From assembly GCA_951406725.2 (NCBI GenBank), contig OX597831.1, forward strand, positions 51,708,001-51,772,000: DNA of 64,000 bases. Reading direction: 5' to 3'. Source of the stretch: Octopus vulgaris. Taxonomy: Eukaryota. This document shows, piece after piece, positions 1 through 63,730 of this stretch; the first letter of the stretch is position 1; every line of letters begins with the position of its first letter. The notes under the pieces were generated by a model. The model saw only the letters and a list, made by a program, of their open reading frames with translations. It was not told the origin of the DNA and ran no database searches. The position numbers and the translations under genes are program-made.

Positions 1-713
1 GAACGAAAAATAAAGTTGAAAAAAAAAAATACATGTCGCCTGATCTACATAAGATAAAACTTCGGATGGGGGAAAATGCCGCATCTATGCCTCGATAGTA
101 GCATTATCGCTCTAGTGTGACGGGACAAGAAAAACGTCCGCATGTTGTCCACAGTGCTTTCCGCAAGCATGAAGGACACTAGGATACTAGATGCGGATGG
201 TAAACCGATAATGAAACCAAGTGTGTTTTGTACAATGAAAGGGTGGGTGGCGTGAATCGTTCAGATCAGTTGGCGGCGACACACAAATCGGCCAGAAAAT
301 TTGTGAAATGGTATAAAATAAATTTCCTTGTATATTGTTGACATGTGTATCATCAATTCTCATTTGATTTGGCAGATGCTTCGAGGTGACAGGGATGGAT
401 CGAAAGTTCGAGATTTATTATTCCGCAGAATTATAAAAGTGTCAGATCTACCAAGGTACCGAACACGAATACGTTTCCACGCCGGACACTCTTCTCGCCG
501 CATAGTGAAGGGATATGGGTATTTCTAAAGATTGTTTATCCCCCAACGCAGTGAAGGCAAATACGACAAATAAATGTACTGAGCAAAAAGCTGAAGGGAA
601 ACGAAAGGAGACCAGATACGTTTGTTCTGATTGTAATACGCCGCTGTAACATGGCACCATGTTTTGAGACGTATCACACTAAAGTTAATTTTGAATTAAC
701 TTGTGTAATGTGA
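1..713 (+). pseudogene. piggyBac transposase C-terminal remnant (frameshifts, stops)
   Basis: Manual translation across frames gives RDKKNVRMLST...KPIMKPSV, YNERVGGVNRSDQLAATHKSARKFVKWYK and LYIVDMCIINSHLIW, followed by a Cys-rich tail RKETRYVCSDCNTPL..PCFETYHT. These are typical piggyBac motifs. Confidence 0.85.
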
Positions 714-835
714 TTGTATAAAGCATGCAAGGGCGATGTGCGGCCCTCGACATGTTGTTGTGCGGCGAGTTTCTCGATTACTAATTTCATACTAAAATAA
801 ATAAAATTTCATACTAAGACAAATAAAATTTCATA

Positions 836-1248
836 GGCGCAGGAGTGGCTGTGTGGTAAGTAGCTTGCTTACCAACCACATGGTTCCGGGTCAGTCCCAC
901 TGCGTGGCACCTTGGGCAGGTGTCTTCTACTATAGCCTCGGGCCGACCAATGCCTTGTGAGTGGATTTGGTAGACGGAAACTGAAAGAAGCCCGTCGTAT
1001 ATATGTATATATATATATGTGCGTGTGTGTTTGTGTGTCTGTGTTTGTCCCCCTAGCATTGCTTGACAACCGATGCTGGTGTGTTTATGTCCCCGTTACT
1101 TAGCGGTTCGGCAAAAGAGACCGATAGAATAAGTACTGGGCTTACAAAGAATAAGTCCCGGGGTCGAGTTGCTCGATTAAAGGTGGTGCTCCAGCATGGC
1201 CGTAGTCAAATGACTGAAACAAGTAAAAGAGTAAAAGAGAGTAAGAGT
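836..1248 (+). mobile_element. tRNA-derived SINE family A, full length
   Basis: Head GGCGCAGGAGTGGCTGTGTGGTAAG with A/B-box-like motifs, a CORE-like CCTTGGGCAAGTG segment, internal (TA)/(TG) tract and (AAAAGAGT)n tail. Many copies occur in the window. Confidence 0.9.
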
Positions 1249-1817
1249 ATACCGAGACAAATAAACTTTTATACTAAGACAAATAAGATTAAGAAGAACT
1301 GCAAAAAATTCAGTGTTTAAAGGGTTAAGTCATATTTCATGCATATGCATTCTATCATGCGGCCCTCTCCCACTTGGAAATGGTACGATGCGGCCCCATT
1401 TGAGGAAAAGTTGCCCATCCCTGGGCTTGTCTGACTTGTGCTAAATGCATGGAATTTGTCTGACTTATGCTATCGAGTAGAAATACCGCATCGGCGTCTT
1501 GCACAGTGATACAGTTTAGGTAAATAAACAGTGCCTGCTTTGAAGCGGTTGACACAAATATATGCTGAATGTTATCTCGCACTAAATTTTGACCTCAATC
1601 GGCGCGATTGCCGTGGCCGCGCGCAAGCTACCCAATGCATCACAACCGTGAAGTGGTTAAAAGGCACGCAATGTCAATAAGTTGCGTTAAAACTACACAT
1701 TGGCAGTGCGGGGCCTGGTTAAGAGTCACATTCTATTGGTGGAATATATTTAAAAATAAAACATAAATCTGGTAATTTTAAAGTAAAAATACAGCAAGAA
1801 CAAATAAAATTAATTCT

Positions 1818-1915
1818 TAGTAGTAGTAGTAGTAGTAGTAATAGTAGTAGTAGTTGTAGTAGTAGCTGTAGTAGTAGTAGTTGTAGTAGTAGTAGCAGCA
1901 GCAGCAGCAGCAGTT

Positions 1916-1975
<60 letters not shown>

Positions 1976-2012
1976 ATGGTAGTAGTAGTAGTGATGGTAG
2001 TGGCAGTAGCAG
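1818..2012. repeat. (TAG)n/(CAG)n trinucleotide microsatellite
   Basis: Seen directly; explains the poly-Leu ORF 1719..2087. Confidence 0.95.
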
Positions 2013-2349
2013 TTGAGTGGAATTTGATTGAGATTTAGCTTCTATTTCCAGCAGGTCGAAATGACTGCTTACAACAGTGGTGCTCAACCTCTTTTGTTTT
2101 GTGGTGCCCCCTTTTAACTAGTTGTTATGTCTCGCACCCACCTAGGGTGGCGAGTGAAGCATCACGATTAAACTAACTTAACATGGATGAAAATTTATAA
2201 AATGGCGATCACGATGATATACGAAGGAAACAATAAAGACTGCGCGCTCATGTTGAGAGGTTTTGGCTTACAGGACCATTCATTCTCGGCTTCCAATGTA
2301 GGCTATGATTTTTTTAATTTTGAGAGAGAGAAGGATAGAGAGGAAAGAT

Positions 2350-2680
2350 AGTGTCTTCTGCTTTAGCCTCGGGCCGACCAAAACCTTGTGAGTGGATTTG
2401 GTAGACGGAAACTGAAAGAAGCCTGTCGTATATATGTATATATATATATGCGTGTGTGTGTTTGTGTGTCTGTGTTTGTCCCCATAGCATTGCTTGACAA
2501 CCGATGCTGGTGTGTTTACGTCCCCGTCACTTAGCGGTTCGGCAAAAGAGACCGATAGAATAAGTACTGGGCTTACAAAAGAATAAGTCCCGGGGTCGAT
2601 TTGCTCGACTAAAGGCGGTGCTCCAGCATGGCCACAGTCAAATGACTGAAACAAGTAAAAGAGTAAAAGAGTAAAAGAGT
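2350..2680 (+). mobile_element. SINE A, 5'-truncated
   Basis: Near-identical to the 3' part of the copy at 836-1248. Confidence 0.9.
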
Positions 2681-2707
2681 AAATGTTTGCATGTGTGAGA
2701 AAGGAAG

Positions 2708-2774
<67 letters not shown>

Positions 2775-3632
2775 TGGAGAAAAAGAGATGGGATGATGCA
2801 CAAACTCTGCAAATTAAGACTCGCTAAAAAAAAAAATTAGCGTTAAAAGAATGAATATCGTTTATCTGAAGGTATTTATGACTTCAGCAAAGAATAGTTT
2901 TTGAATTTCGTATTTGGCTCTCACTAATGAGACAGCAGAATGGAGTATTAATAGTAATTCAATGCGTTCTATGAAGAAAAGAAAAAAAAAAAAAAAATCA
3001 ACATCACCATGAAGTTCTTTGATTTCATATTAAAGTGGTCGGAGGCAATTTATGAATCAAATGAAATATAAGAATATGAAAAAAAAAATAATGATCTATT
3101 CTACTGGAATTTATCAAATAGATACGCAATTAGGTGTGATTAGTTGATTTAGTCGTCCTTTAAAAGGAAGTTATTTTGTTAAATCTGCAAACTATTTCCT
3201 CAAGAATTTTAAAGATTTTTCCAAATTAGCTCATTAACTAGATTCAATGATTTGTGAAATACTGATGCAAGAATTCTATTTCTTTTTTGTTTCACATGAA
3301 AACATAATGAAAAAACGAAAATCAATTTACGCGTAATAAATCGCTTTGGCATGGCGAGATGAATTCAAAAGCAGAATTTAGAAGATGGCTTCGTAGACAA
3401 GTTCGTGATATTTTCTAATATGCTCTCAAAAGAAGAAAATATCATACGTGATATGGTGTGTCTTTGTTATTTGGCTGATTAACAATCTAGCATTACACAC
3501 GATTACCATTGGCCTCACAGATATATGGTGTGTCTTTTCTCTGCTTCTTCTATTACTACTCCAACTGTCTCTTCCCTTCTGAACTAACAAACCCATCATA
3601 CATACATACATACATACATACATACACACACG

Positions 3633-3676
<44 letters not shown>

Positions 3677-3727
3677 TATATATATGTATATATGTATGCA
3701 TGTGTGTGTGTATATATATATATATGT

Positions 3728-4109
3728 GGAGGCGCAATGGCCCAGTGGTTAGGGCAGCGGACTCGCGGTCATAGGATCGCGGTTTCGATTCCCAGACCGG
3801 GCGTTGTGAGTGTTTATTGAGCGAAAACACCTAAAAGCTCCACGAGGCTCCGGCAGGGGATGGTGGTGATCCCTGCTGTACTCTTTCACCACAACTTTCT
3901 CTCACTCTTACTTCCTGTTTCTGTTGTACCTGTATTTCAAGGGGCCGGCCTTGTCACTCTCTGTGTCACGCTGAATATCCCCGAGAACTACGTTAAGGGT
4001 GCACGTGTCTGTGGAGTGCTCAGCCACTTACACGTTAATTTCACGAGCAGGCTGTTCCGTTGATTCGGATCAACCGAAACCCTCATCGTCGTAACCGACG
4101 GAGTGCTTC

Positions 4110-4110
<1 letters not shown>
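3728..4110 (+). mobile_element. tRNA-derived SINE family C
   Basis: tRNA-like head (TGGCCCAGTGG A box, GGTTTCGATTCC B box) plus a ~300-bp body, lying between (TA)n tracts. Degenerate relatives lie at ~28190-28500 and ~57120-57410. Confidence 0.8.
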
Positions 4111-4154
<44 letters not shown>

Positions 4155-5099
4155 GACACACATAATTAAGGATAAAATCAATTAATGATCTTATCAGTAG
4201 CCAGCATGTAATAAATACCATATAGGTAAAAATTAATATAGATCTATAATTATATAGATGTAATTATAGTTAAGGGTATTGTGGTTTTTAGAGTAACTTG
4301 ACGTCTATCTCTAGCATCTAGGTGCTGTTTCTCAGTTCTCTTAACTATAATTATATGTATGTGTGTGTGTGTGTGGTTGTGTGTGTGTGCGTGTGGTTGT
4401 GTGTGTGTGTGCGTGTGGTTGTGTGTGTGTGTGTGTTGTTGTTGTTTATTCTTTCTCAAGCAATACCTGGCTCATAAGGGGCCGGTTTTCCGGTTTCATT
4501 GGCGTAAAGGTTCTCCACCTGGACGGGACGTTTGTCCGTCACAATATATATATATATATATATATATATTCGTGTAACGCGATATTTAGAACGTTTCAAG
4601 CTGGAAAATCTTTCATTGCGATAGATGTCTCAAGGAAAAATAGAAAAAACTCTCCTTTTAGACGACACGGTGTACGCACACATTGGGCTGTGAACGAATC
4701 GTTCGCTTTGGGTTGTGAAATGTAGATTTGCTATTCATTGCTGGTGAAACATAACAACGCAGAAACGTATGCATTCTACAATCCAATGACGTCATTGAAA
4801 GTTCAATGTGTTTTTACACAATTCGTGTAGGAGAAGAATTTTATCTCGAGAATATTTCTTTAACGAAAGGCCTTCGCACGTCCGAGTGTATTCGAACGTA
4901 TTAAATATGATTTTTACCTGAACATATTTTATTCGACAAGGAAGAGGAAGAGGTGAGAATCTTGTAAGTATGCTGGATACGTCAGAGTAACTGGTCGAGT
5001 ACTGGGATGGTATGCTCAATCTAGTCTTCTCAGGAGCGGCTCTTGTCTATCTTCTATTTTATCAAGCTCCACTGTCACAAAAACTGAGTCCCAATCAGA

Positions 5100-5482
5100 T
5101 ACTCATTTTGACTGCGGCCATGCTGGAGCACCGCCTTTAATCGAGCAACTCGACCCCGGGACTTATTCTTTGTCAGCCCAGTACTTAGTCTATCGGTCTC
5201 TTTTGCCGAACCGCTAAGTGACGGGGACGTAAACACACCAGCATCGGTTGTCAAGCAATGCTAGGGGGACAAACACAGACACACAAACACACACACGCAT
5301 ATATATATATACATATATACGACGGGCTTCTTTCAGTTTCCGTCTACCAAATCCACTCACAAGGCTTTGGTCGGCCCGAGGCTATAGTAGAAGACACTTG
5401 CCCAAGGTGCCACGCAGTGGGACTGAACCCGGAACCATGTGGTTGGTAAGCAAGCTACTTACCACACAGCCACTCCTGCACC
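5100..5482 (-). mobile_element. SINE A
   Basis: Reverse complement of the family A sequence. Confidence 0.9.
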
Positions 5483-6084
5483 TACTTGTTTTTGACACTG
5501 GAAGGGAAAAAGCCTAGATGCCACATATGTGATGCCAACTTCTTAAGTGCTTTCTGTCCATAACATAAGGCGAAAGAAGGAACCCCACACTAAATGCTGC
5601 AAGCGTCACATACTGCACCGGTAAAAATCAGCATAACAACAAGCTGCTACAAAGGCTGCAGAACTAAGAGCAGCAGCGCCAAAAAGAGCAACAGGAACCG
5701 CTCTCCACCAAAAATAAATAAAAAATCAGCGACAGAGACTGACTTCACAATCGAGAGGGAGTTTCATCACCACCTTCACTAACAAAAGAAACCCTCCCTA
5801 TTCCAAGAGTTCACCAAAACACAAACGTACACAAAAATCGCAGGAACTCAAGTATATATATCTGAAGCCTTTCCTTGATTCTGTTAAATAAAAAGAATTA
5901 AGTTTCTTGCAATCGACGTAACATGTCCATTTGATCCATTTGATACTAAATTCAAGAGAAAGGAAATGTCTTGTAATTAGCGTGTCATACATATTTGGTA
6001 CCGGAATCAAGAAAAAAGAAAGAAATTAATATGTAAAGAATAAGTGGAATATCTTGAAGTGTGACATTCTGTAATGCTAGAACA

Positions 6085-6455
6085 AAGAATTTTATTATAT
6101 ATTTGGCAGCGCTCTTAGAGTGTCTGAAAAATGCCTTGCGGTATTTTTTTCCGGCTGTTTACGTTCTGAATTCAAATACCACCGATGCCCACTTTGTCTT
6201 TCATCTCTCTGGGTTCGTTAAAATAAAGTACCAGTCTAGTGTCTTGTACTTGGTCTGATAGTATCGATTAACTACCTACCTTCAAAAACTCCTGGCATTG
6301 AGCCAAAATTTGAAGCCATTATATAGGCACCGACCCGGTAGAATCGTTAAAAGCGTCGGGAAAAAAATGCTTAGCGGCATTTCTGTCGACATTTTAGATT
6401 TTGAGTTCAAATTCCGTCGAGGTCAGCTCTACCTTTCATTCTTTCGGGATCGACG
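6085..6455 (+). mobile_element. Two degenerate SINE B copies
   Basis: Recognisable ttctgaattcaaat...tttcatc..cggg..aagtaccag blocks. Confidence 0.6.
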
Positions 6456-6600
6456 GCAGCAAAATACATACATACATTCATACATACATACATACATACA
6501 TACTTACATACATACATGCATACATACATACATACATACATACATACATACAAACATACATACATATATACATACATACATACATACATACATACATACA

Positions 6601-6631
<31 letters not shown>

Positions 6632-6885
6632 GTGTGTGTATGTGTGTGTATATGTATGTATATCAGTACGTACGTATGCATGTATGTATGTGCCTCTGTC
6701 TATGTCAAGGTATTCCTGTGTCTGTGTTTGTCCCCCCCCACCACTTGACAACCAATGCTGGTTTATTTATGTCCCCGTAATTTTGTGGTTCGGCAAAAGA
6801 GACAATAAAATAAGCACCAGACTTAAAAAACTTCGGCCTACCCCCAACAAAACATAAGTACTGGGGTCAATTTGTTCGACTAGAC

Positions 6886-7700
6886 CAGTGGTTCTCAACC
6901 ATTTTTTTGCCTACGGTCCCCTTTGATTCTTATTTTATTCAGATGTGCTCTCCTAGCCATTCGATGTTTAAAAAAAGCCCTATTGTAATTTTATAATTAA
7001 ATATTGGTTTCAAATTTCGATGCAAGGCCAGCAATTTCGTGGGAGGGGTAAGTCGATGTAATCGACCCCAGTGATCAACTGGTACTTATTTTATCGATAG
7101 CGAAAAGATGAAAGGCAAAGTCAACCACGGCGGAATTTGAACTGAGAACGTAAAGGCACACGAAATGCCGCTCAGCATTTTGCCTGGCGTGATACCGATT
7201 CTGCCGGTTCACCGCCTTATAATTAATCATTCTTTTATCTTTTACTTGCTTCAGTCATCAGACTGCGGCCATACTGGGCACTACCTTGAAGAATTTTAGC
7301 CGACCAAATGGACTCCTAGTATTTATTATTATTATTTTGTGAAACCTGGCACTCATTCTATCAGTCTCTTTCGCCGAACCGCTAAGTTGTGGGCACACCC
7401 ATACCCACATATACAACGGGCTCCTTTCAGTTTCCGTCTACCAAATCCATTCAGAAGGCTTTGGTCAACCCGATGCTATACAGAAGACACCTGCTCAAGG
7501 TGCTGCGCACTAGGACTGAATCCGGTATCATGTGGTTGGGAAGGAAACTGCTTACCACATAGCCACGCCTGCGCCTATAATAAGGAAATGTATTAAATAA
7601 AAATTGTTAAAATGTTTTGTGCATTGTAGAAGTTTCACCGCTTCATTACACACAAACTTTAATGACAAAATCTTATATGGACCTCGGTTGAGAAGCTCCG
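6886..7700. mobile_element. hAT (Charlie-like) MITE with nested SINE B (7010-7217, -) and SINE A (7235-7577, -)
   Basis: Termini CAGTGGTTCTCAACC ... GGTTGAGAAGCTCCG. It interrupts the 3' part of an older SINE A-like copy (6718-6885, resuming near 7705). Confidence 0.65.
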
Positions 7701-7787
7701 GGCCAAATCCTTCAAGGCGGTGCACCAGTATGGACACGTCCGTTACATCAACTTCCCTATCCTTGGAATGTATGATGTATGTATATA

Positions 7788-7953
7788 GGTGTAGGAGTGG
7801 CTGTGTGGTAAGTAGCTTGCTTACAAAACCACATGGTTCCGGGTTCTGTCCCATTGCGTGGCACCTTGGGCAAGTGTCTTCTACTATAGCCTCGGGCCGA
7901 CCAAAGCATTGTGAGTGGATTTGGTAGACGGAAACTGAAAGAAGCCCGTCGTA

Positions 7954-8015
<62 letters not shown>

Positions 8016-8311
8016 ATCCAAACAAGAAAACACAAAAAAACACAACAACGCGAGGACGTGGAACAAATATAGTATTATTGGACGCTCAGGAAAGAAGGAA
8101 ATATATATACATATATATATATATGTATGTATGTGTGTGTGTGTGTATACCGATGCTGGTGTGTTTACGTCCCCGTTACCTAGCGGATCGGCAAAAGTGA
8201 CCGAAAGAATAAGTCCTAGGCTTACAAAGAATAAGTCCTGGGGTCGATTTGCTCGACTAAAGGCGGTGCTCCAGCATGGCTACAGTCAAATGACTGAAAC
8301 AAGTAAAAGAG
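7788..8311 (+). mobile_element. SINE A interrupted in its internal (TA)n by a family-E fragment (8010-8100)
   Basis: SINE 5' half 7788-7955, 3' half 8149-8311. The insert matches the element at 13663-13760. Confidence 0.8.
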
Positions 8312-8693
8312 TATATATATATGTATATATGTATATATATATTTATCCATGCTGGAGCACTGCCTTTATATATATATATATATATAAACACTGGCAGAAA
8401 CATATTTTTTACTCATATAAATGATTACGATAATCATTGTGGTTTGAACAATTAGCTTAACGTGCACTTCACTTCAATAGCGAAATTCTTTCCCAAGCCT
8501 TTGCACATTCTTTTAATCAACGTACCCTTCCCTCTCTACTTGTTCCCTACCTATTATTCCTTTAACCCTTCTCTTCCTACGATCTAACTTTGACGTCAAT
8601 TCTACTAACGGTTTTTTTTAAAACACCTATAGTTTTGTTTACCATGTAGGCAGTCATCGCAATTTTTGTTTGTTTTCTTGTTGAGAGAGGCTC

Positions 8694-8786
8694 CCTTTCT
8701 TTCCTGATGAGAAGATTGCATCTTGCACCGTTTATTCCTTTGGAATGAAACTATGTTGTCTTCGAAACATATGTCGAGAGTAAAGG
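8694..8786 (+). ncRNA. Type I hammerhead ribozyme motif, canonical core
   Basis: Core CTGATGA at 8704-8710. Stem II GAAGA/TCTTC (8711-15/8759-63). GAAAC-ATAT-GTC at 8764-8775 with palindromic ACATATGT. Stem I 8694-8703 pairs with 8776-8786 (10 bp, one G-U, one bulge). Confidence 0.85.
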
Positions 8787-8823
8787 AATTTTGTTAACAT
8801 CTTCGTTCAACTCCATTTATTTA

Positions 8824-8887
<64 letters not shown>

Positions 8888-8904
8888 CATGTGTGTGTGT
8901 GTAT

Positions 8905-9118
8905 ACGTTTGTGTGTCTGTGTTTGTCCCCCCAACATCGCTTGACAACCGATGCTGGTGTGTTTACGTCCCCGTAACGAAGCGGTTCGGCAAAACAACCG
9001 ATAGAATAAGTACTCGGCTTACAAAGCATAGGTCCTGGGGTCGATTTGCTCGACTAAAGGCGGTGCTCCAGCATGGCCACAGTCAAATGACTGAAACAAG
9101 TGAAAGAGTAGAAGAGTG
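8905..9118 (+). mobile_element. SINE A 3' half
   Basis: Matches the family A 3' body and tail. Confidence 0.85.
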
Positions 9119-9295
9119 TGTATGATCCAATATGAAACACTGCACCTACGTTACGTTAAATCATTATTGGCAATTAACGTTTTATTTTTACTCTGACATG
9201 TAATGTTTCCTGTGTGTCGAGACGTAAAGGATATGGTTTCAAGAGGCAGTCGAGACGTGAATGGGTAGGAGGTGACGGTATGGACAATAGTAAGG

Positions 9296-10482
9296 GTGAA
9301 AGGAAGAGGTAAGAAAGGAGAGAGAGGCGGAGAGAGAGATTGTGTGTGTGTGTGTATGTATGTATGGGAAAGTACCCGTTTGGCTCAATGTATGTGTGTG
9401 TGTGAGTGAAAGGAAGAGGTGAGAGAGGAGAGACAGGCGGAGAGAGAGATTGTGTGTGTGTGTATGTATGTATGGGAAAGTACCCGTTTGGCTCAATGTA
9501 TGTGTGTGTGTGAGTGAAAGGAAGAGGTGAGAGAGGAGAGAGAGGCGGAGAGAGAGATTGTGTGTGTGTATATGTATGTATGGGAAAGTACCCGTTTGGC
9601 TCAATGTATGTGTGTGTGTGAGTGAAAGGAAGAGGTGAGAGAGGAGAGACAGGCGGAGAGAGAGATTGTGTGTGTGTGTGTATGTATGTATGGGAAAGTA
9701 CCCGTTTGGCTCAATGTGTGTGTGAGTGAAAGGAAGAGGTGAGAGAGGAGAGACAAGCGGAGAGAGAGATTGTGTGTGTGTGTATGTATGTATGGGAAAG
9801 TACCCGTTTGGCTCAATGTATGTGTGTGTGTGAGTGAAAGGAAGAGGTGAGAGAGGAGAGAGAGGCGGAGAGAGAGATTGTGTGTGTGTGTATGTATGTA
9901 TGGGAAAGTACCCGTTTGGCTCAATGTATGTGTGTGTGTGAGTGAAAGGAAGAGGTGAGAGAGGAGAGACAGGCGGAGAGAGAGATTGTGTGTGTGTATG
10001 TATGTATGGGAAAGTACCCGTTTGGCTCAATGTATGTGTGTGTGTGTGAGTGAAAGGAAGAGGTGAGAGAGGAGAGACAGGCGGAGAGAGAGATTGTGTG
10101 TGTGTGTATGTATGTATGGGAAAGTACCCGTTTGGCTCAATGTGTGTGTGTGTGTGTGTGTGAGTGAAAGGAAGAGGTGAGAGAGGAGAGAGAGGCGGAG
10201 AGAGAGAGAGAGTTTGTGTGTGTGTATGTATGTATGGGAAAGTACCCGTTTGGCTCAATGTATGTGTGTGTGTGAGTGAAAGGAAGAGGTAAGAGAGGAG
10301 AGACAGGCGGAGAGAGAGATTGTGTGTGTGTGTGTATGTATGTATGGGAAAGTACCCGTTTGGCTCAATGTGTGTGTGAGTGAAAGGAAGAGGTGAGAGA
10401 GGAGAGACAAGCGGAGAGAGAGATTGTGTGTGTGTATGTATGTATGGGAAAGTACCCGTTTGGCTCAATGTGTGTGTGTGTG
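9296..10482. repeat. ~108-bp composite minisatellite, 11 copies
   Basis: Unit gtgaaaggaagagg..ggcgg(ag)n att(gt)n(atgt)n gggaaagtacccgtttggctcaat(gt)n. Unit starts near 9296, 9406, 9513, 9622, 9726, 9833, 9942, 10050, 10164, 10275, 10380. Confidence 0.95.
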
Positions 10483-10924
10483 TATCTGTGTGAGTCTCCA
10501 TTTTGGGCTGAATGTGTATGCACATATGCATGTGTATCTACATGTTTGGCCGAATATGTGTGTGTGTGTATGTGTGTATGTGTGTGTGTATATGTGTGTG
10601 TATGTGTGTGTGTGTATGTATGTGTGTCTATGCGAATCACTATATTTGGCTGAATGTGTGTGTGTGTATGTGCATGTGAATGTGTGTATATATGTTTGAC
10701 TGAATATGTGTGTATATGCGTATGTGACTGTGTGAATGTGTGTGTGTATGTGTGTGTGGGTGTGTTAGACTGAAAAGGTGAGTCTAGACGTGTATCTGTA
10801 TATCACTCTGATTATGTGTGAGCGCGATTACGTGTAAAATTCGGGAGTGTTTGATGTATGTATGATTCAATTTGTCAGTGTATAGGATGAATTACTGAGT
10901 ATATGTGAATGTGTGTAGATCTTT

Positions 10925-11240
10925 GTGTATGTGTATGTATGTATGTATGTATGTATGTATGTATGTATGTATGTATGTATGTATGTATGTATGTATGTAT
11001 GTATGTATGCATGTATGTAAGTATGTATGTATGTATGTATGTATGTAAGTAGGTATGTATGTATGTATGTATGTATGTACGTACGTACGTATGTATGTAT
11101 GTATGTATGTATGTATGTATGTATGTATGTGTGTATGTATGTAAGTATGTATGTAAGTATGTATGTATGTAAGTAAGTATGTATGTATGTATGTGTGTAT
11201 GTATGTATGTATGTATGTATGTATGTATGTATGTATGTAT
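10925..11240. repeat. (TATG)n microsatellite
   Basis: Seen directly. Confidence 0.95.
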
Positions 11241-11274
11241 ATGTGAGTATGTGTGTGGTGTGTGTGAGTGTGTG

Positions 11275-12112
11275 TGTGGTGTGAATGAACCAGCTATGTG
11301 TGTGTACGTGTGTGTGCGTGTATGTATATGTGTGCATGTGTGTGTGTACGCGTGTGGTGTGAGTGAACTAGCTAATGTGTGTGTACGTGTGCGTGTGTAT
11401 GCGTGTGTGTGGTATGAATGAACTGGCTAACGTGTGTGTGCGTATGCGTGCGTGGTGTGAATGAACCAGCTGTGTATGTGTGTGTGTGTGGTGTGAATGA
11501 ACCAGCTGTGTGTGTGTGTGTGTGTGGTGTGAATGAACAAGCTGTGTGTGTGTATGGTGTGAATGAACCAGCTGTGTATGTGTGTGTGTGTATGTGTATG
11601 TGGTATGAATGAACCAGCTATGTGTGTGTGTGGTGTGAATGAACAAGCTGTGTGTGTGTGTGGTGTGAATGAACCAGCTGTGTATGTGTGTGTGGTGTGA
11701 ATGAACAAGCTGTGTGTGTGTGGTGTGAAGGAACCAGGTGTGTATGTGTGTGTGTGTGTGTGTGGTGTGAATGAACAAGCTGTGTGTGTGTGTGTGGTGT
11801 GAAGGAACCAGCTGTGTATGTGTGTGTGTGTGTGTGTGTGTGGTGTGAATGAACAAGCTGTGTGTGTGTGTGTGGTGTGAAGGAACCAGCTGTGTATGTG
11901 TGTGTGTGTGTGTGTGGTGTGAATGAACAAGCTGTGTGTGTGTGTGTGATGTGAAGGAACCAGCTGTGTATGTGTGTGTGTGTGTGTGGTGTGAATGAAC
12001 AAGCTGTGTGTGTGTGTGGTGTGAAGGAACCAGCTGTGTATGTGTGTGTGTGTGTGTGTGTGTGGTGTGAATGAACAAGCTGTGTGTGTGTGTGTGATGT
12101 GAAGGAACCAGC

Positions 12113-13330: not shown

Positions 13331-13662
13331 ATAGCACGAATAAGAATACAAAAATATGTAAAAACAATAATGATAATAATAATAGTTGTTCAAACGATGA
13401 ATAGATTTGGGTAAACTATTGGTTCGTTTTGTTCTCTTACTTTATTATCATCTTATAATCATGTCATAATAATGACCTTTATGACTCGTATTACTACCTC
13501 AGTCAATTTAAATGTATATATTTGTCGCTACCTGTCATAAATAGCCTTTTTCTATTTGCAATATGCATTTTCGTTGATTTTTCATATTTTACCCTTACAT
13601 TTCCACGTGTATTTTATATTTTCTTTTCGTAACATATTTCTTCTATATATATATATATATAT

Positions 13663-14145
13663 AAAGTTAATCCGAACATGAAAATACAAAGGGAAAACAC
13701 AACAACGCGAGGACGTGCAACAAGTATAGTGTTATTGGACCCTCAGGAAAGGAAAGAAAGGAGGATTTAACGTTTCAAGCGGAGCTCTTCGTCAGAAACA
13801 TAGAAAAAGGAAAGATCCAAGTAAGGGAAGACGGAGGAAAAGTGGAAGTAGAAGAAGAAAGGTAAAAAGAGGACGAGAAAAAGTGGAAGAGTCGCGGACA
13901 ATTTTTTTTTGATTTCCAATCACGATTACAGTGGCGTACTCCGGATGAATGGTAACAGTAATCCGTTGGTGTACAAATCCAGGAATTGGTTATCCAAGTC
14001 AGTCAGAAGGCCGGGGTCCGTGTGAGCGTGCGGTATATAAAGTTAATCCAAACATGAAAACACAAAGGAAAAACACAACAACGCGAGGATGTGGAACAAG
14101 TATAGTGTCATTGGACGCTCAGGAAGGAAAGAAAGAAGGAGGACT

Positions 14146-14146
<1 letters not shown>
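13663..14146 (-). mobile_element. Family E hammerhead-bearing element in partial tandem (pLTR-like repeat, internal ~190 bp, repeat with HHR)
   Basis: 14038-14146 is a direct repeat of 13663-13768. HHR motif at 13765-13799 on the - strand. Flanked by (TA)n on both sides. Confidence 0.75.
13765..13799 (-). ncRNA. Minimal type I hammerhead motif
   Basis: Minus strand gtttCTGACGAa-GAGC-tcc-GCTT-GAAACGTT^aaat. Confidence 0.7.
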
Positions 14147-14185
<39 letters not shown>

Positions 14186-14186
<1 letters not shown>

Positions 14187-15380
14187 TCGGTTGTCCAGGA
14201 AGTTCTGAGCGTTTTAAAGCTAAATCTTTTAACACTTCATTGAACACACCTGAAACGTAACACAGTTAAAACTTTGGTGTTGCCTGAAGTGGTAGCGCGT
14301 CTCTTCTTTGTTCCTGACTAAAACTAGATTTATCTTTCATTCCACTTACCCTTTATTGACATTTGAAATGGATAACCAAAAATTTCATATTCACGTCGTA
14401 ATGCTTTTATTTCTAAAAAAAAAAAAAAGTGGGGAAAGTGGTGCTGCAAAGACTTGCAAAAACATTTGTGAAGTTTATGGTGATGATGCTGTTGGTGAAT
14501 CAACAGTTCGAAGGTGGTTTGCAAAATTTGAAGATGGAGAGTTTAGCTTGGAAGATGACAGTCGCAGTGGAAAACCGTCAAAATTGGATGACAATGTTTT
14601 GAAGGCAAAAATCGAAAACTAAAATACCATGATTACAGAACTTGCAGAGGAGTTGGAAATTTCCAAAAGTACGGTCTATGAACATCCAGTGAAGCTAGGA
14701 TACATTTCTCGCTATAATGTATAGATTCCTCACAAACTCTCAGAAAAAAATTTCTTGGACCGGTGTTCCGTTTGTGACATGCTTTTGAAACGGAATGAAA
14801 GCATGTCTTTTCTGAAACAACTTGTGACTGGAGATGAAAAATGAATTGTGTATGAAAACGTAGTGTAAAAAACATCTTGGAGTTTGCGTAAGGATCCCCC
14901 AAAAGAGCAACCAAAGACAAATATCCATGCCAAAAAAGCCATGCTTTGTGTTTGGTGGGATCACATAGGCATTATTTATTATGAGCTTCTCGCACAAAAC
15001 CAGACCATTAATTCTGATGTGTACTGTCGTTAGCTGGCTTATTTGAGCCAAAAAACCCCAAAGAACTGAGGCCGGAGATTACCAACAGGAAATGGGTAGT
15101 GTTCCAGCAAGGCAATGCCCGACCACATGTGTCTTTGGCTACCCGAACAAAGTTACATGAATTTGGCTTGGATCTCTTACCCCAGCCACCATATTCTCCT
15201 GATATTATGCCATCCGACTACTTGGTTTTGTCTCTTCAGAATTCATAACAAGGAAAAACATTTAGCGATTTAGATGGAGTCAAAGTGCATCTAGATAACT
15301 TTCTTCAAAACCAGTCAACTTTTATGCTGATGGAATATTTAAAGTGCTTGATAGATGGGCAAAGGTCATTAATAGTAATT
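14186..15380 (+). pseudogene. mariner transposase pseudogene (ATG 14368) with 5' TIR remnant at 14186
   Basis: Translates to ICEVYGDDAVGESTVRRWFAKFEDGEFSLEDDSRSGKP, IPHKLSE, LVTGDEK, KAMLCVWWD..GIIYYELL, FQQGNARPH, QPPYSPDIMPSDY and RWAKVI. Multiple stops and frameshifts. Confidence 0.93.
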
Positions 15381-22305: not shown

Positions 22306-23353
22306 GGATCTTTGTGGTTATCGTCACTATCTACAATCTTGTTCCAATTGTTTTCAAATTTGGTATATGGACTAAGTTTTGTATACTAATTGTGAAAATG
22401 AAATTCATTTCCCCTACAAATTCATAATTAGAAAGTTATTAGCCTTTAAAATTTGCAAAATCTGGATATTTTAGCCAATCAGAAGCAAGTATTTTACACA
22501 TCACCGTGAAGTTCTGTTAGCATAGTAAGCAAAGAAGCACCACGTGTTCCATAGGTGATTGCAAAGAACTCTGTTTCCATAGTAACCAAAGATGCTGCGC
22601 ATGCGCACAAGGAGTGTAAACAAAGTCTGCATACGACACAAAGTTCTTCCAGGAACCACTATCTTCAGTGACCTGTGGCGAGCTTATAATCACATCCCAG
22701 AAATCTTGGGCTATGATTTTAAACATAAATCTGTGAACCATAGCATTGAATTCATTAACTCAAATGATGGGACTCACATGCAACAAAACGAGAGTACATG
22801 GGCATCTTTAAAGCGTGGAGACAAACGTCAGTGTGGGACACACCGTTCCATGGTTGACTCTTATCTTTGTGAACTTATGTGGAGAAGGAGATATAAGAAA
22901 TATAATTTATTTTATAAAATCCTTGAGCGTATTACAAACTTCCGTTCTTGAATGTTTTAAGCTAATAAATGTCTGTTCGGAGCAATGTTTTGACTGTTAT
23001 TTCTAGCAACTCCTGTTGGTTTGCTCGTAAGTTTTAAATATTTAATTTGCTCGCGAATCTTTTAACGTTTTTCACTGTTTACTGTAGCTAGTTTAATATT
23101 TTGGCATGCCGGTGCCACCCCATCCGCACCCGCTTTCTCGCTATTGTGACAGATGATGGATGAGGCAGCGAACGCGCTGTTTTCTGATTGGCTGAAAATT
23201 CTGAAAATTATCAAACTCTGAACACCTGTAACATTTTCGCAAATTTTTGTTTTGTAATATATGAATAACAAATTTGGTTTCAGCGTCAAAAATTACATCT
23301 ATATAATTTTTCTCAAAGATTTCGACATACAATGACGATAACCGCAAAGATCC
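22306..23353 (+). mobile_element. Merlin (IS1016/ISXO2-like) DNA transposon deletion derivative
   Basis: TIRs GGATCTTTG(T/C)GGTTATCGTCA with a perfect 8-bp TSD CATACTGA (22298-305 / 23354-61). Contains a transposase C-terminus. Confidence 0.88.
22630..22951 (+). pseudogene. ISXO2/Merlin DDE transposase C-terminal fragment
   Basis: VLPGTTIFSDLWRAY...HKSVNHSIEFI...GTHMQQNESTWASLKR...YLCELMWRRR matches the Merlin SD.W..Y / H..VNH..F / HT..IE..W / YL.E..WR pattern. Confidence 0.9.
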
Positions 23354-33800: not shown

Positions 33801-34286
33801 TGGTTCCAAATTTTGTCTTTGGTACTGGCAACATGCTTTACAATGAAAGGCAAAACAAAATCATTGCAACATGGTTTGTCCTGATTTTTCACAACGGTTC
33901 TTGTAAAGTGGTTTTGAGCTTTTATGTGATACAAGTTTTTGTTATTCGGTGTCTGCCACATGGGCAGCCAATCAAATCTATAATGTTTTTTTCGTTGGGA
34001 TTTGCAAGGTGTTTGTTTGATATCTGCTACATGGACTGTCTTTGACATATTCAGGTTAGTTTTTACTGGCTTTTTTTGCTATACGACTTGTCATTTGCAT
34101 TTGTAATGTATTTTCGTCTGTTTCGGGGTTTGTTCTTGATAATAAACTCCCACATGTTTTCTTTTCAATACCTGGTAAGAATTTTTTAAGTGGTGTATAA
34201 CTTTCGTTCATACTTGCTACATGGTTTGATTTCAACACCTTCTACGTGTTTAGACTTTAAGAAATTTACATCAATCACAGAGTATA

Positions 34287-34704
34287 GGCGCAGGAGTGGC
34301 TGTGTGGTAAGTAGCTTGCTAACCAACCACATGGTTCCGGGTTCAGTCCCACTGCGTGGCATCTTGGGCAAGTGTCTTCTGCTATAGCCCCGGGCCGACC
34401 AATGCCTTGTGAGTGGATTTGGTAGACGGAAACTGAAAGAAGCCTGTTGTATATATGTGTATATATATGTATGTGTGTTTGTTTGTGTGTCTGTGTTTGT
34501 CCCCCTAGCATTGCTTGACAACCGATGCTGGTGTGTTTATGTCCCCGTTACTTAGCGGTTCGGCAAAAGAGACCGATAGAATAAGTACTGGGCTTACAAA
34601 AAAGAATAAGTCCCGGGGTCTATTTGCTCGATTAAAGGCGGTGCTCCAGCATGGCCGCAGTCAAAGGACTGAAACAAGTAAAAGAGTAAAAGAGTAAAGA
34701 GAGT
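34287..34704 (+). mobile_element. SINE A, full length
   Basis: Family A sequence flanked by an agagtata direct repeat. Confidence 0.9.
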
Positions 34705-36210: not shown

Positions 36211-36552
36211 GAGTTCAAAGAGCCATGGAAAGGTCAATCTTGGTATCTCGTTGAGAGAGCACATCAGTAGCGAGATCATCAGAAAGAAGTCCGGCGTGAG
36301 GGATGGCAGAGTACACGCGGCAAGTATAGATGGGCTGGACACGTCGCCCGGCTCACCGATAATCGGTGGACCCGCGCAGTTGTCGAGTGGTACCCGCGCA
36401 TTGAAACGACCGGAAGGCCTCCACGATGGTGGAGTTACGATTTCAGGAGGACGATTGGGATCACGTGGATGAGAAAGGCGCGAGCCAGAGAGGAGTGGAC
36501 AGAGTGCTGTGACCAGCGGTGTCAAATGGACGCTCGATCGGACTGGTCGGTC

Positions 36553-36556
<4 letters not shown>
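36208..36556 (+). pseudogene. RTE-clade LINE 3' fragment in (TA)n
   Basis: QRAMERS.LGISLREHISSEIIRKKSGV...KYRWAGHVARLTDNRWTRAVVEWYPR..GRPPRWW...W..KAR.REEW is the typical RTE ORF C-terminus. Confidence 0.85.
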
Positions 36557-36635
<79 letters not shown>

Positions 36636-36655
36636 GTGTGTGTGTGTGTGTGTGT

Positions 36656-36873
36656 ATAGGGGCGGGGTGCTGAAAAGTTCTTGGCTAAGGGTATCATGAA
36701 AGGCCTTGGAGGTCCAACATTCTGAGTTCTTTTACAGGACTTAGAAAAACATGAAGACTGCTGCAATAAGTGTGTAAATCTCAGTGGGAAATATGTTGAA
36801 TACAATTATAATTAACTGATTCTCTTGTGTTTTCATTTACCCAAAGCCAGTAAATTTTCAACACCTCCTCGTA
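36656..36873 (+). mobile_element. mariner-derived MITE
   Basis: TIR TA.GAGGGGGTGCTGAAAAGTTC.TGGCT; retains the mariner C-terminus [11 protein letters not shown]. Confidence 0.75.
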
Positions 36874-43171: not shown

Positions 43172-43668
43172 GGACCAGACGGTCAATCGAGAGTTCTTCT
43201 ACAACGTTTTGAAGCATTTGAGGGAGGACATTCGGTGAAAGCGACCGGATCTGTAGAGCGCGAAGAATTCAATTCTTCACGACGATAATGCACCCTGTCA
43301 ACGAGCTCTCCTCATTCGCGAGTTTCTCGTCCAAAACAACATGGTATCGCTTCCACACCCACCCTATTCACCAGTTTTAGTACCTGTGGACTTCCGTCTC
43401 TTCCCCAAGATGAAAATGCAGCTCAAAGATCGCCGTTCTAACACTATTGTCGAGATCAAAAGCGAATCGCAGAAGGTCCTCGACTCGCTTATGGAAAACG
43501 ACTTCCAAAACGGATTCCAAAACTGGCAGAGATGCTGGCACCGTGTGTGTTGTTGCGCAAGGTGACTATTTCGAAGGAGATGATGTTAAAACTTAGGTAA
43601 ATAAGTTATATTTTATTAAACATAACTTGTCCTAACCCTAACCCTAACCCTTTTGATATCACCTCTTA
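43172..43668 (+). pseudogene. mariner transposase 3' half with right TIR
   Basis: QTVNREFFYNVLKHLREDIR*KRPDL...ILHDDNAPC...LPHPPYSPVLVPVDFRLFPKMK...QGDYFEGD, followed by TIR-like ttttgatatcacctctta. Confidence 0.9.
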
Positions 43669-43758
43669 CATACATGCATACATACATACATACATACATA
43701 CATACATACATACATACATACATACATACATACATACATACATACATACATACATGTA

Positions 43759-44162
43759 GGCGTAGGAGTGGCTGTGTGGTAAGTAGCTTGCTTACCAACC
43801 ACATGGTTCCGGGTTCAGTCCCACCGCGTGGCACCTTGGGCAAGTGTCTTCCACTATAGCCTCGGGCCGACCAAAGCCTTGTGAGTGGATTTGGTAGACG
43901 GAAACTGAAAGAAGCCCGTCGTATATAGGTATGTATATGTGTGTGTGTGTGTATTTTTGTGTCTCTGTTTGTCCTTCAGTATCGCTTGACAACCGATGCT
44001 GGTGTGTTTACGTCCCCGTAACTTAGCGGTTCGGCAAAAGAAACCGATAGAATAAGTATTAGGCTTCCAAAGAATAAGTCCTGGGGTCGATTTGCTCGAC
44101 TAAAAGGCGGTGCTCCGGCATGGCCACAGTCAAATGACTGAAACAAGTAAAAGAGTAAGAGT
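43759..44162 (+). mobile_element. SINE A in (TACA)n
   Basis: Family A sequence. Confidence 0.9.
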
Positions 44163-54573: not shown

Positions 54574-54672
54574 CACACAAATATACGTGGTTGTGCGCGC
54601 GCCCGTGTAAAACTGATAAACAGAGTATAATTTATGAAAAAAAATTTGCTGTTTTATTTTGATTTAAATACC

Positions 54673-55087
54673 TATTTCTTTATTACCCACAAGGGGCTAA
54701 ACATAGAGGGGACAAATAAGGACAGACATAGGTATTAAGTCGATTACATCGACCCCAGTGCGTAACTGGTACTTAATTTATCGACCCCGAAAGGATGAAA
54801 GGTAAAGTCGACCTCGGCGGAATTTGAACTCAGAACGTAACGGCAGACGAAATACCTATTTCTTTATTACCCACAAGGGGCTAAACACAGAGGGGACAAA
54901 CAAGGACAGACATTGGTATTAAGTCGATTACATCGACCCCAGAGCGTAACTGGTACTTAATTTATCGACCCCGGAAGGATGAAAGGTAAAGTCGACCTCG
55001 GCGGAATTTGAACTCAGAATGTAACGGCAGACGAAATACCGCTAAGCATTTCGCCCGACGTGATAACGTTTCTGCCAGCTCTCCGCC
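54673..55087 (-). mobile_element. Dimeric SINE B with 19-bp TSD
   Basis: One head followed by two bodies in tandem. TSD ttattttgatttaaatacc at 54654-54672 and 55088-55106. Confidence 0.88.
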
Positions 55088-63128: not shown

Positions 63129-63730
63129 CGCCACAGCTTTAGGACTGAAACGTACAAAACGTTTATACGAACATATATGCATGCATGTATGTATACATAC
63201 ACAGACACAGACACACACACATATACATATATATGTATGCATGTAGGTATATATATGCAAGCACACATCCGTACATTGGTACCATTTTTATGTATAATTG
63301 TAAGCAAAAACCGAGAAGCATTAACTATAAAATCACTGAACGCGTTTAAGTAGAGTATCACATTTATTTTCGCAAAGAAAGGTTAAGCTGTGACTTGGAG
63401 GTTTCATCGGTTGTTGACCGTTCGTCAGGCTGACGATGCCAACAAACTTCGAAATCTTTGTCAACCTTTTCCATGTATGTATGTATGTATGTATGTATGT
63501 ATGTATGTATGTATGTATGTGGGTATGTATGTATGTATGTGGGTAGATAGGTATGTATGTATGTATGCATGTATGTTTGGATGTATGTATGCATGTGTAT
63601 GTAAGTACAAATAAACATATATATTGAGAGAGAGAGGGGGAGAGAAAGAGAGGGAGAGAAAGAGAAAGAGAAAGTGAAAGAGAGAGAGAGAGAGAGCGAC
63701 AGCATGAGAGAGATAGTTTTATTTAATATA

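Follow-up and report, generated by a model that had tools for sequence, protein, structure and literature searches.

A probable short, non-autonomous Penelope-like element with a minimal hammerhead motif in a (TA)n tract of Octopus vulgaris

In Octopus vulgaris DNA, a 483-bp insertion on the minus strand likely represents an old copy of a Penelope-like element (PLE) that is short and non-autonomous; the copy is arranged as a partial tandem and was presumably moved by an autonomous Penelope with the same end repeat. This reading is based on the anatomy of the insertion, on its hammerhead, on a body that is repeated together with both of its junctions, and on the (TA)n targets. The insertion works like a non-autonomous PLE derivative and is retrozyme-like in its size and its absent coding capacity. 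Here, the window is the whole stretch of 64,000 nucleotides that was analyzed, and all positions refer to it.

As shown in Table 1, the insertion (14146-13664) lies inside (TA)n and consists, in the order of the minus strand, of a 107-bp partial repeat, TATATA, a body of about 190 bp, and a full repeat that contains the minimal type I hammerhead. The coordinates and the strand given in the original prediction, with a full repeat followed by (TA)n, were reproduced in the sequence. Aligned over 108 nt, the two repeats are 91.7% identical. The letters AAGTCC at 14146 directly abut (AT)11 and align in register with AAATCC at 13768, which is the first base past the GUU triplet at 13771-13769, and the 5' partial pseudo-LTR starts at the base equivalent to N1.1, ±1 nt. 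Since the TA of GTTAA could belong equally to the element and to the (TA)n target, the two overlap by 2 nt and the junction at 14146 is ambiguous by ±1 nt. A start exactly at the equivalent of the cleavage site, as originally proposed, was found in register (14146/13768), with a precision of ±1 nt. From 14146 to 13769, where cleavage is predicted, there are exactly 378 nt, with a GC content of 42.9%, and the period between the two repeats is 376 at their 3' ends as against 378 at the start because of small indels. The insertion continues 105 nt past the downstream cleavage site, to 13664, giving a total of 378+105 nt; the proposed 378-nt monomer running from one cleavage site to the next is correct as a distance, and the insert extends 105 nt beyond it. 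Folding of the 484-nt strand gave no unusual stability (z +0.93).

Table 1. Features of the insertion and its flanks, and copies of a dispersed repeat in the window.
Feature	Position	Strand	Basis
5' flank: (AT)11 then (GT)9 microsatellite, the target site; no TSD discernible	14147..14186	.	sequence
5' partial pseudo-LTR, 107 bp, without hammerhead core	14040..14146	-	repeat alignment
Linker TATATA, from repeat 3' end to body	14034..14039	-	sequence
Non-coding body, about 190 bp, single in the window	13842..14033	-	window comparison, public contigs
3' full pseudo-LTR, common to a very high-copy family	13664..13841	-	repeat alignment, contig depth
Minimal type I hammerhead, predicted cleavage after 13769	13765..13799	-	descriptor match
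3' flank: (TA)10	13644..13663	.	sequence
SINE-like repeat copies	888-1210, 2319-2585, 5107-5429, 34285-34606, 43752-44078		

The repeat occurs at four loci in the 64 kb, namely in this element and near 8.0, 40.1, and 47.4 kb. All five repeats at these loci have the same 3' end, which is followed by (TA)n at 4/4 loci. Counted from the cleavage site, the repeat begins at −99 in copy C, −91 in copy B, 0 in this element, and about +9 in copy D, where the last value was read by eye as +5 to +15 because a pyrimidine tract blurs it. A minimal hammerhead in the terminal repeat, a partial tandem, fixed 3' ends with variable 5' ends, and (TA)n make up a Penelope-type structure, and the Penelope-type layout that had been predicted, a minimal hammerhead in a pseudo-LTR and a partial tandem inside (TA)n, was seen in every part. 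With respect to the cleavage site, the starts of copies C (window 40037) and B (window 47505) lie close together, and there may be a preferred 5' boundary of the abundant family near −99/−91. Upstream of copy B, and in the same sense as it, lie about 800 bp of adjoining non-repeat DNA (47506-~48320, minus strand), where one stop-broken frame resembles, by eye and by its motif, a piece of a LINE-type RT. This piece was considered as the autonomous partner and was set aside after the Pfam and homologue searches gave no match; the DNA upstream of copy B is possibly a template-switch chimera.

The features described above agree with what has been reported for PLEs, whose insertions form partial tandems, are truncated at the 5' end, and often use (TA)n targets, the truncated upstream copy in a partial tandem being the usual layout (accessible parts of PMC8557442). 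In the supplements of the same paper that were accessible, (TA)n is the target given for octopus PLE families. For O. vulgaris, PLEs are put at 6.83% and 190 families in the part of PMC13282606 used here.

The predicted hammerhead at 13765..13799 is judged to be real and of the Penelope-type minimal form. It is composed of a 4-bp helix I, CUGACGA, an extra A, a 4-bp helix II with a UCC loop, and GAAA, where a palindromic ACGU occupies the place of helix III; C3 lies at 13795, G8 at 13790, A9 at 13789, the extra A at 13788, positions 10.1 and 11.1 at 13787 and 13777, G12 at 13776, and H17 at 13769. A minimal-hammerhead descriptor matched three places in the window (13795-, 47441-, and 40109+) and none in 300/300 dinucleotide shuffles, which bears out the minimal hammerhead that had been claimed here. 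No match at the gathering score was obtained with Rfam in the window, and the 12 Rfam matches at E<=10 in the locus were at chance level, with no hammerhead among them. The four pairs of helix I are kept in 3/3 copies, with changes to U-G and C-G in copy B and to U-G in copy C, and are followed by mismatches. This copy carries G10.1-U11.1, as against G-C in copies B and C and in 87-98% of the contig depth; therefore, judged by its letters, it is a decayed member of the family, changed by several percent including G10.1-C11.1 to G-U. At position U4 (window 13794), U4C accounts for 28-43% of the contig depth in four runs, which suggests that a large subfamily has a variant core. When the 378-mer was folded as a circle, the eight hammerhead pairs tested had probabilities of <=0.034, and two hammerhead strands co-folded into a duplex other than the active form; such folds carry no information for a motif thought to need a dimer or a protein.

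The minimal hammerheads of metazoan PLEs have an extra base between 9 and 10.1, G10.1-C11.1, a palindromic 15.2-16.2, and a short helix I, and cleave weakly and as dimers only, according to the accessible text of PMC4209133. The present motif shares with the EN+ PLEs of that work (Cervera & de la Pena 2014) the extra base after A9, the palindromic helix III, and the 4-bp helix I, and its family shares the G10.1-C11.1 pair, the partial tandem, and the occurrence mostly of single motifs in truncated copies. However, helix II has 4 bp here and 7-8 bp in Schistosoma, and the repeats enclose 190 bp without an RT/GIY-YIG ORF instead of about 3 kb (same parts of PMC4209133).

The distribution of the body and the repeat was analyzed in contigs of 4/24 public runs (X1, X2, X7, and X8, of which X8 is guessed to be RNA) aligned to the element at 80% likeness, where summed contig depths are not copy numbers. 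In the four runs, the summed depth of the repeat was about 1e5 to 3.7e6, and the body was covered throughout at a summed depth of about 300 to 12,000; the ratio of the core of the repeat to the body was about 540 in X1 and X2 and 1,700-2,500 in X7 and X8. In X1, the summed depth of the body reached about 4,000-12,000, as against 19-62 for the single contigs listed, and up to 29 contigs carried other letters at one body position. The body is thus repeated in 4/4 runs, with many diverged contigs, and it was found whole in one piece in X1 record 4 (13852-14058, 27 other letters) and in X2 record 14. With a rule of 31 letters, the upstream junction was bridged by one contig (X8 record 31, 13983-14089) and the downstream junction by one (X2 record 12, 13766-13877), and the upstream junction is also crossed by five further listed records, which reach less far into the repeat. 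X8 record 31, with 5 other letters and 4 gaps, could represent the same locus in a related animal and not a paralogue.

Loose contig ends were found at 13836-13841 in the four runs; therefore, as far as the alignments indicate, most repeat copies continue upstream with the sequence of copies B and C and lack this body. For several body contigs the alignment breaks off at 13852 and the remaining letters do not align, and the body may also be joined to other 3' ends. This exact copy was not seen in the four runs, because all the depth at 13894 differs from the window, and no listed contig piece spans the whole element. An abundant repeat together with a rarer, repeated body that keeps both junctions indicates a low-copy body family joined to a repeat of very high copy number, and the body is therefore neither unique nor a one-off chimera. 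The approximately 190 bp that the original prediction had called unique are single in the window and repeated in the public runs.

The body had also been claimed to be non-coding, which is borne out by the protein searches. Pfam gave no meaningful match in 6/6 frames of the body, which contain no RT/GIY-YIG ORF; one frame had no homologue in a word-index search among longer proteins, and another had none among 1.84 billion representatives. When an autonomous partner with this repeat was sought by exact patterns in metagenome, prokaryote-genome, and viral contigs, 5/5 scans returned 0 matches. No description of the body or repeat family was found in the papers searched; in the supplement of Craig et al., four family strings were absent and a fifth matched an algal element only. 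The family is probably uncatalogued or unremarked, and it may already have an entry in Repbase, Dfam, or the O. vulgaris library of 190 PLE families.

Several other features were observed in the window. A mariner transposase fragment (14296-14619, plus strand; Mos1 HTH, PF17906) lies 150 bp from the element and has five relatives at 67-73% identity, 4/5 of which are named Octopus sinensis or O. vulgaris; its best relatives are Octopus proteins, which points to an octopus as the likely host. Two hammerhead-like cores that are unrelated to this family and single in the window stand back to back on opposite strands at 63402-63454; neither passes the strict hammerhead descriptor, and the site is possibly an inverted junction of another PLE family. 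Tandem arrays occupy 9296-10483 (108 bp x 11) and 54666-55040 (184 bp x 2), and a SINE-like repeat of about 270-320 bp is dispersed in both orientations with copies up to 97% alike (Table 1). On the plus strand, three short frames may represent an ISXO2/Merlin-type transposase piece (22586-22951), an RTE LINE 3' end (36271-36699), and a mariner catalytic piece (43257-43565).

The common origin of the two repeats has to be considered, since the insertion could be read as two events. The repeats differ at 7/85 positions, and other repeat pairs differ at 4-9; this value is as high as that between unrelated copies, and the case for a common origin therefore rests on a rare letter and on the conserved junctions. 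Both repeats share the letter at 14068/13692, which is lacking in copies B and C and in 94-98% of the depth at 14068. The closest listed body contigs are about 6-8% different from the insertion, which therefore appears to be old, and repeats that were identical initially could have diverged to this extent. Two insertions into one TA tract, where a 5'-truncated body and repeat were joined later by a 107-bp repeat fragment whose match to the cleavage site is due to chance, are very unlikely. Such events would leave TATATA as leftover target, which is indeed the linker; the repeat is dense, with four loci within the 64 kb, and has (TA)n as its target, the two repeats resemble each other no more than they resemble other copies, and PLEs tend to insert beside earlier copies according to the accessible part of PMC6765202. 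However, contigs with 5 to 27 other letters cross the junction of repeat, TATATA, and body in 4/4 runs, although only one of them has 31 letters on both sides, and the two repeats share both the rare letter and the length class. Taken together, the rare letter and the conserved junctions favour a single insertion derived from one source element, and two insertions may have been the origin of the founder of the family. It is also highly improbable that the body is the remnant of an autonomous PLE subfamily that suffered an internal deletion and was amplified with its parent, and not a mobile short unit. The body does follow the 3' end of the repeat, where the 5' region of a full PLE would lie, and unaligned letters remain in some body contigs at 13852, 13966, or 13972; against this, diverged contigs carry the whole body unbroken, and no frame tested had a protein match.

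A true non-LTR retrozyme, where 378-nt arrays yield doubly cut monomers and circles and the insert was read for 1.28 turns to the ligation/cleavage junction, is an unlikely alternative in view of the following comparison. A circle would account for both the more-than-unit length and the end at the site, and 378 nt with 42.9% GC falls within the range of animal retrozymes (accessible text of PMC7229834), the unit being a non-coding monomer of low GC within about 170-400 nt. Li et al. 2026 derive retrozymes from pseudo-LTRs, and their screen admits minimal hammerheads (accessible text of bioRxiv 10.64898/2026.07.22.740005). The element is thus like the retrozymes of Cervera & de la Pena 2020 and of Li, Clavereau & Pollet 2026 in its non-coding 378-nt unit and low GC, and like animal non-LTR retrozymes in its type I hammerhead, its derivation from pseudo-LTRs, and its presumed mobilisation by PLEs (PMC7229834, in part). 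However, non-LTR retrozymes are defined by a canonical type I hammerhead in the accessible text of PMC7229834, which assigns the minimal class to PLEs and Terminons and not to retrozyme repeats, and by two consecutive units with complete hammerheads in that of bioRxiv 10.64898/2026.07.22.740005. In place of a 6-bp helix I and a contact between loops 1 and 2, 4 pairs are present in 3/3 copies, and the locus has one hammerhead and no second complete unit, let alone two or more consecutive ones. No listed contig shows body, repeat, and body in succession, where the longest listed piece, 207 nt, is too short to span them. Contig joints that go back 376-378 were rejected as evidence for arrays, because the reference holds the repeat twice and a single full repeat suffices to yield them. 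In addition, minimal hammerheads cleave weakly even as dimers (accessible text of PMC4209133), and 8/9 Xenopus dimers were without cleavage in the accessible text of bioRxiv 10.64898/2026.07.22.740005. The insert also differs from retrozymes in that its 3' end is the end of the pseudo-LTR and not the cleavage site. The retrozyme-like membership that had been proposed for this locus is accordingly not upheld, with one hammerhead that is minimal and not canonical and an insert that exceeds the monomer.

The preferred reading, a short non-autonomous PLE, would proceed as follows. An autonomous PLE with the same repeat would supply the RT and the endonuclease and nick (TA)n, and reverse transcription would start at the 3' end of the repeat (13664), where TATATA past the repeat 3' end could conceivably pair with the target. 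Copying would then pass the uncut downstream hammerhead, the body, and the next repeat and stop at 14146, and the template would be one linear RNA of slightly more than one unit. The last 105 nt are absent from a doubly cut linear monomer, which therefore cannot have been the template; the options consistent with the insert are a linear RNA cut upstream only, a truncated uncut RNA, or a circle read for 1.28 turns. Among known systems, Poseidon PAc of Anolis carolinensis (Frangieh et al. 2024, PMC11167929) has the same AT-rich targets and a hammerhead in the pseudo-LTR region, and its template likewise reads through an uncut hammerhead; however, PAc is autonomous and its RNA-seq (accessible text of the same paper) is without ends at the cleavage site, the very position at which the present genomic copy begins. 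The non-autonomous PLE derivatives of Chlamys, such as MRC1 (Craig et al. 2021, PMC8557442), belong to green algae, and most Chlamys are without a hammerhead in the accessible parts of that work.

Whether 14146 is the 5' end of an RNA cut by the hammerhead of an upstream unit or a TA-guided truncation appears, from the position of the end, to stand at about even odds, with a slight lean to the cut end because it lies within 1 nt of the site. Among the four repeat 5' ends in the window, site 0 is the only exact match. If truncation is even, a 3-nt window in the 182-nt repeat is a target of about 2%; if truncation is guided by TA microhomology, the site is one of eight TA dinucleotides in the 182-nt repeat, about 12%. 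The match to the cleavage site was picked out for the coincidence, which counts against a cut end, and a single copy is not enough to prove that its start was made by the ribozyme. The depth ratio across the cleavage site was 0.91-1.42 in the four runs, with no step, and the contig alignments of these runs had no place with many molecule ends, which contigs cannot show. As far as depth can indicate, this level profile is evidence only against the abundant family having inserted 3' cleavage products en masse, and it says little about the rare body-bearing copies. For the anole Poseidon, hammerhead mutants inserted normally in vitro, cleavage being unnecessary, and no RNA ends at the cleavage site were reported from RNA-seq in the accessible text of PMC11167929. 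No description of PLE 5' ends mapped to a hammerhead cleavage site was found in the literature. That body-bearing copies start exactly at the cleavage site family-wide is possible, although we consider it somewhat doubtful.

Hammerheads in Penelope repeats and non-autonomous units derived from pseudo-LTRs are already known, and the element itself is ordinary. A short family in which complete units are frequently copied offers 5' ends of partial tandems that can be counted in an octopus assembly, which would be a direct and cheap test of whether weak minimal hammerheads cut in vivo. If the family-wide start at the cleavage site is true, genomic fossils would record in vivo cutting by a minimal PLE hammerhead. 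A minimal hammerhead would then determine the 5' end of the RNA that transposes, with the downstream hammerhead left uncut, and the family would represent an intermediate between Penelope and retrozymes.
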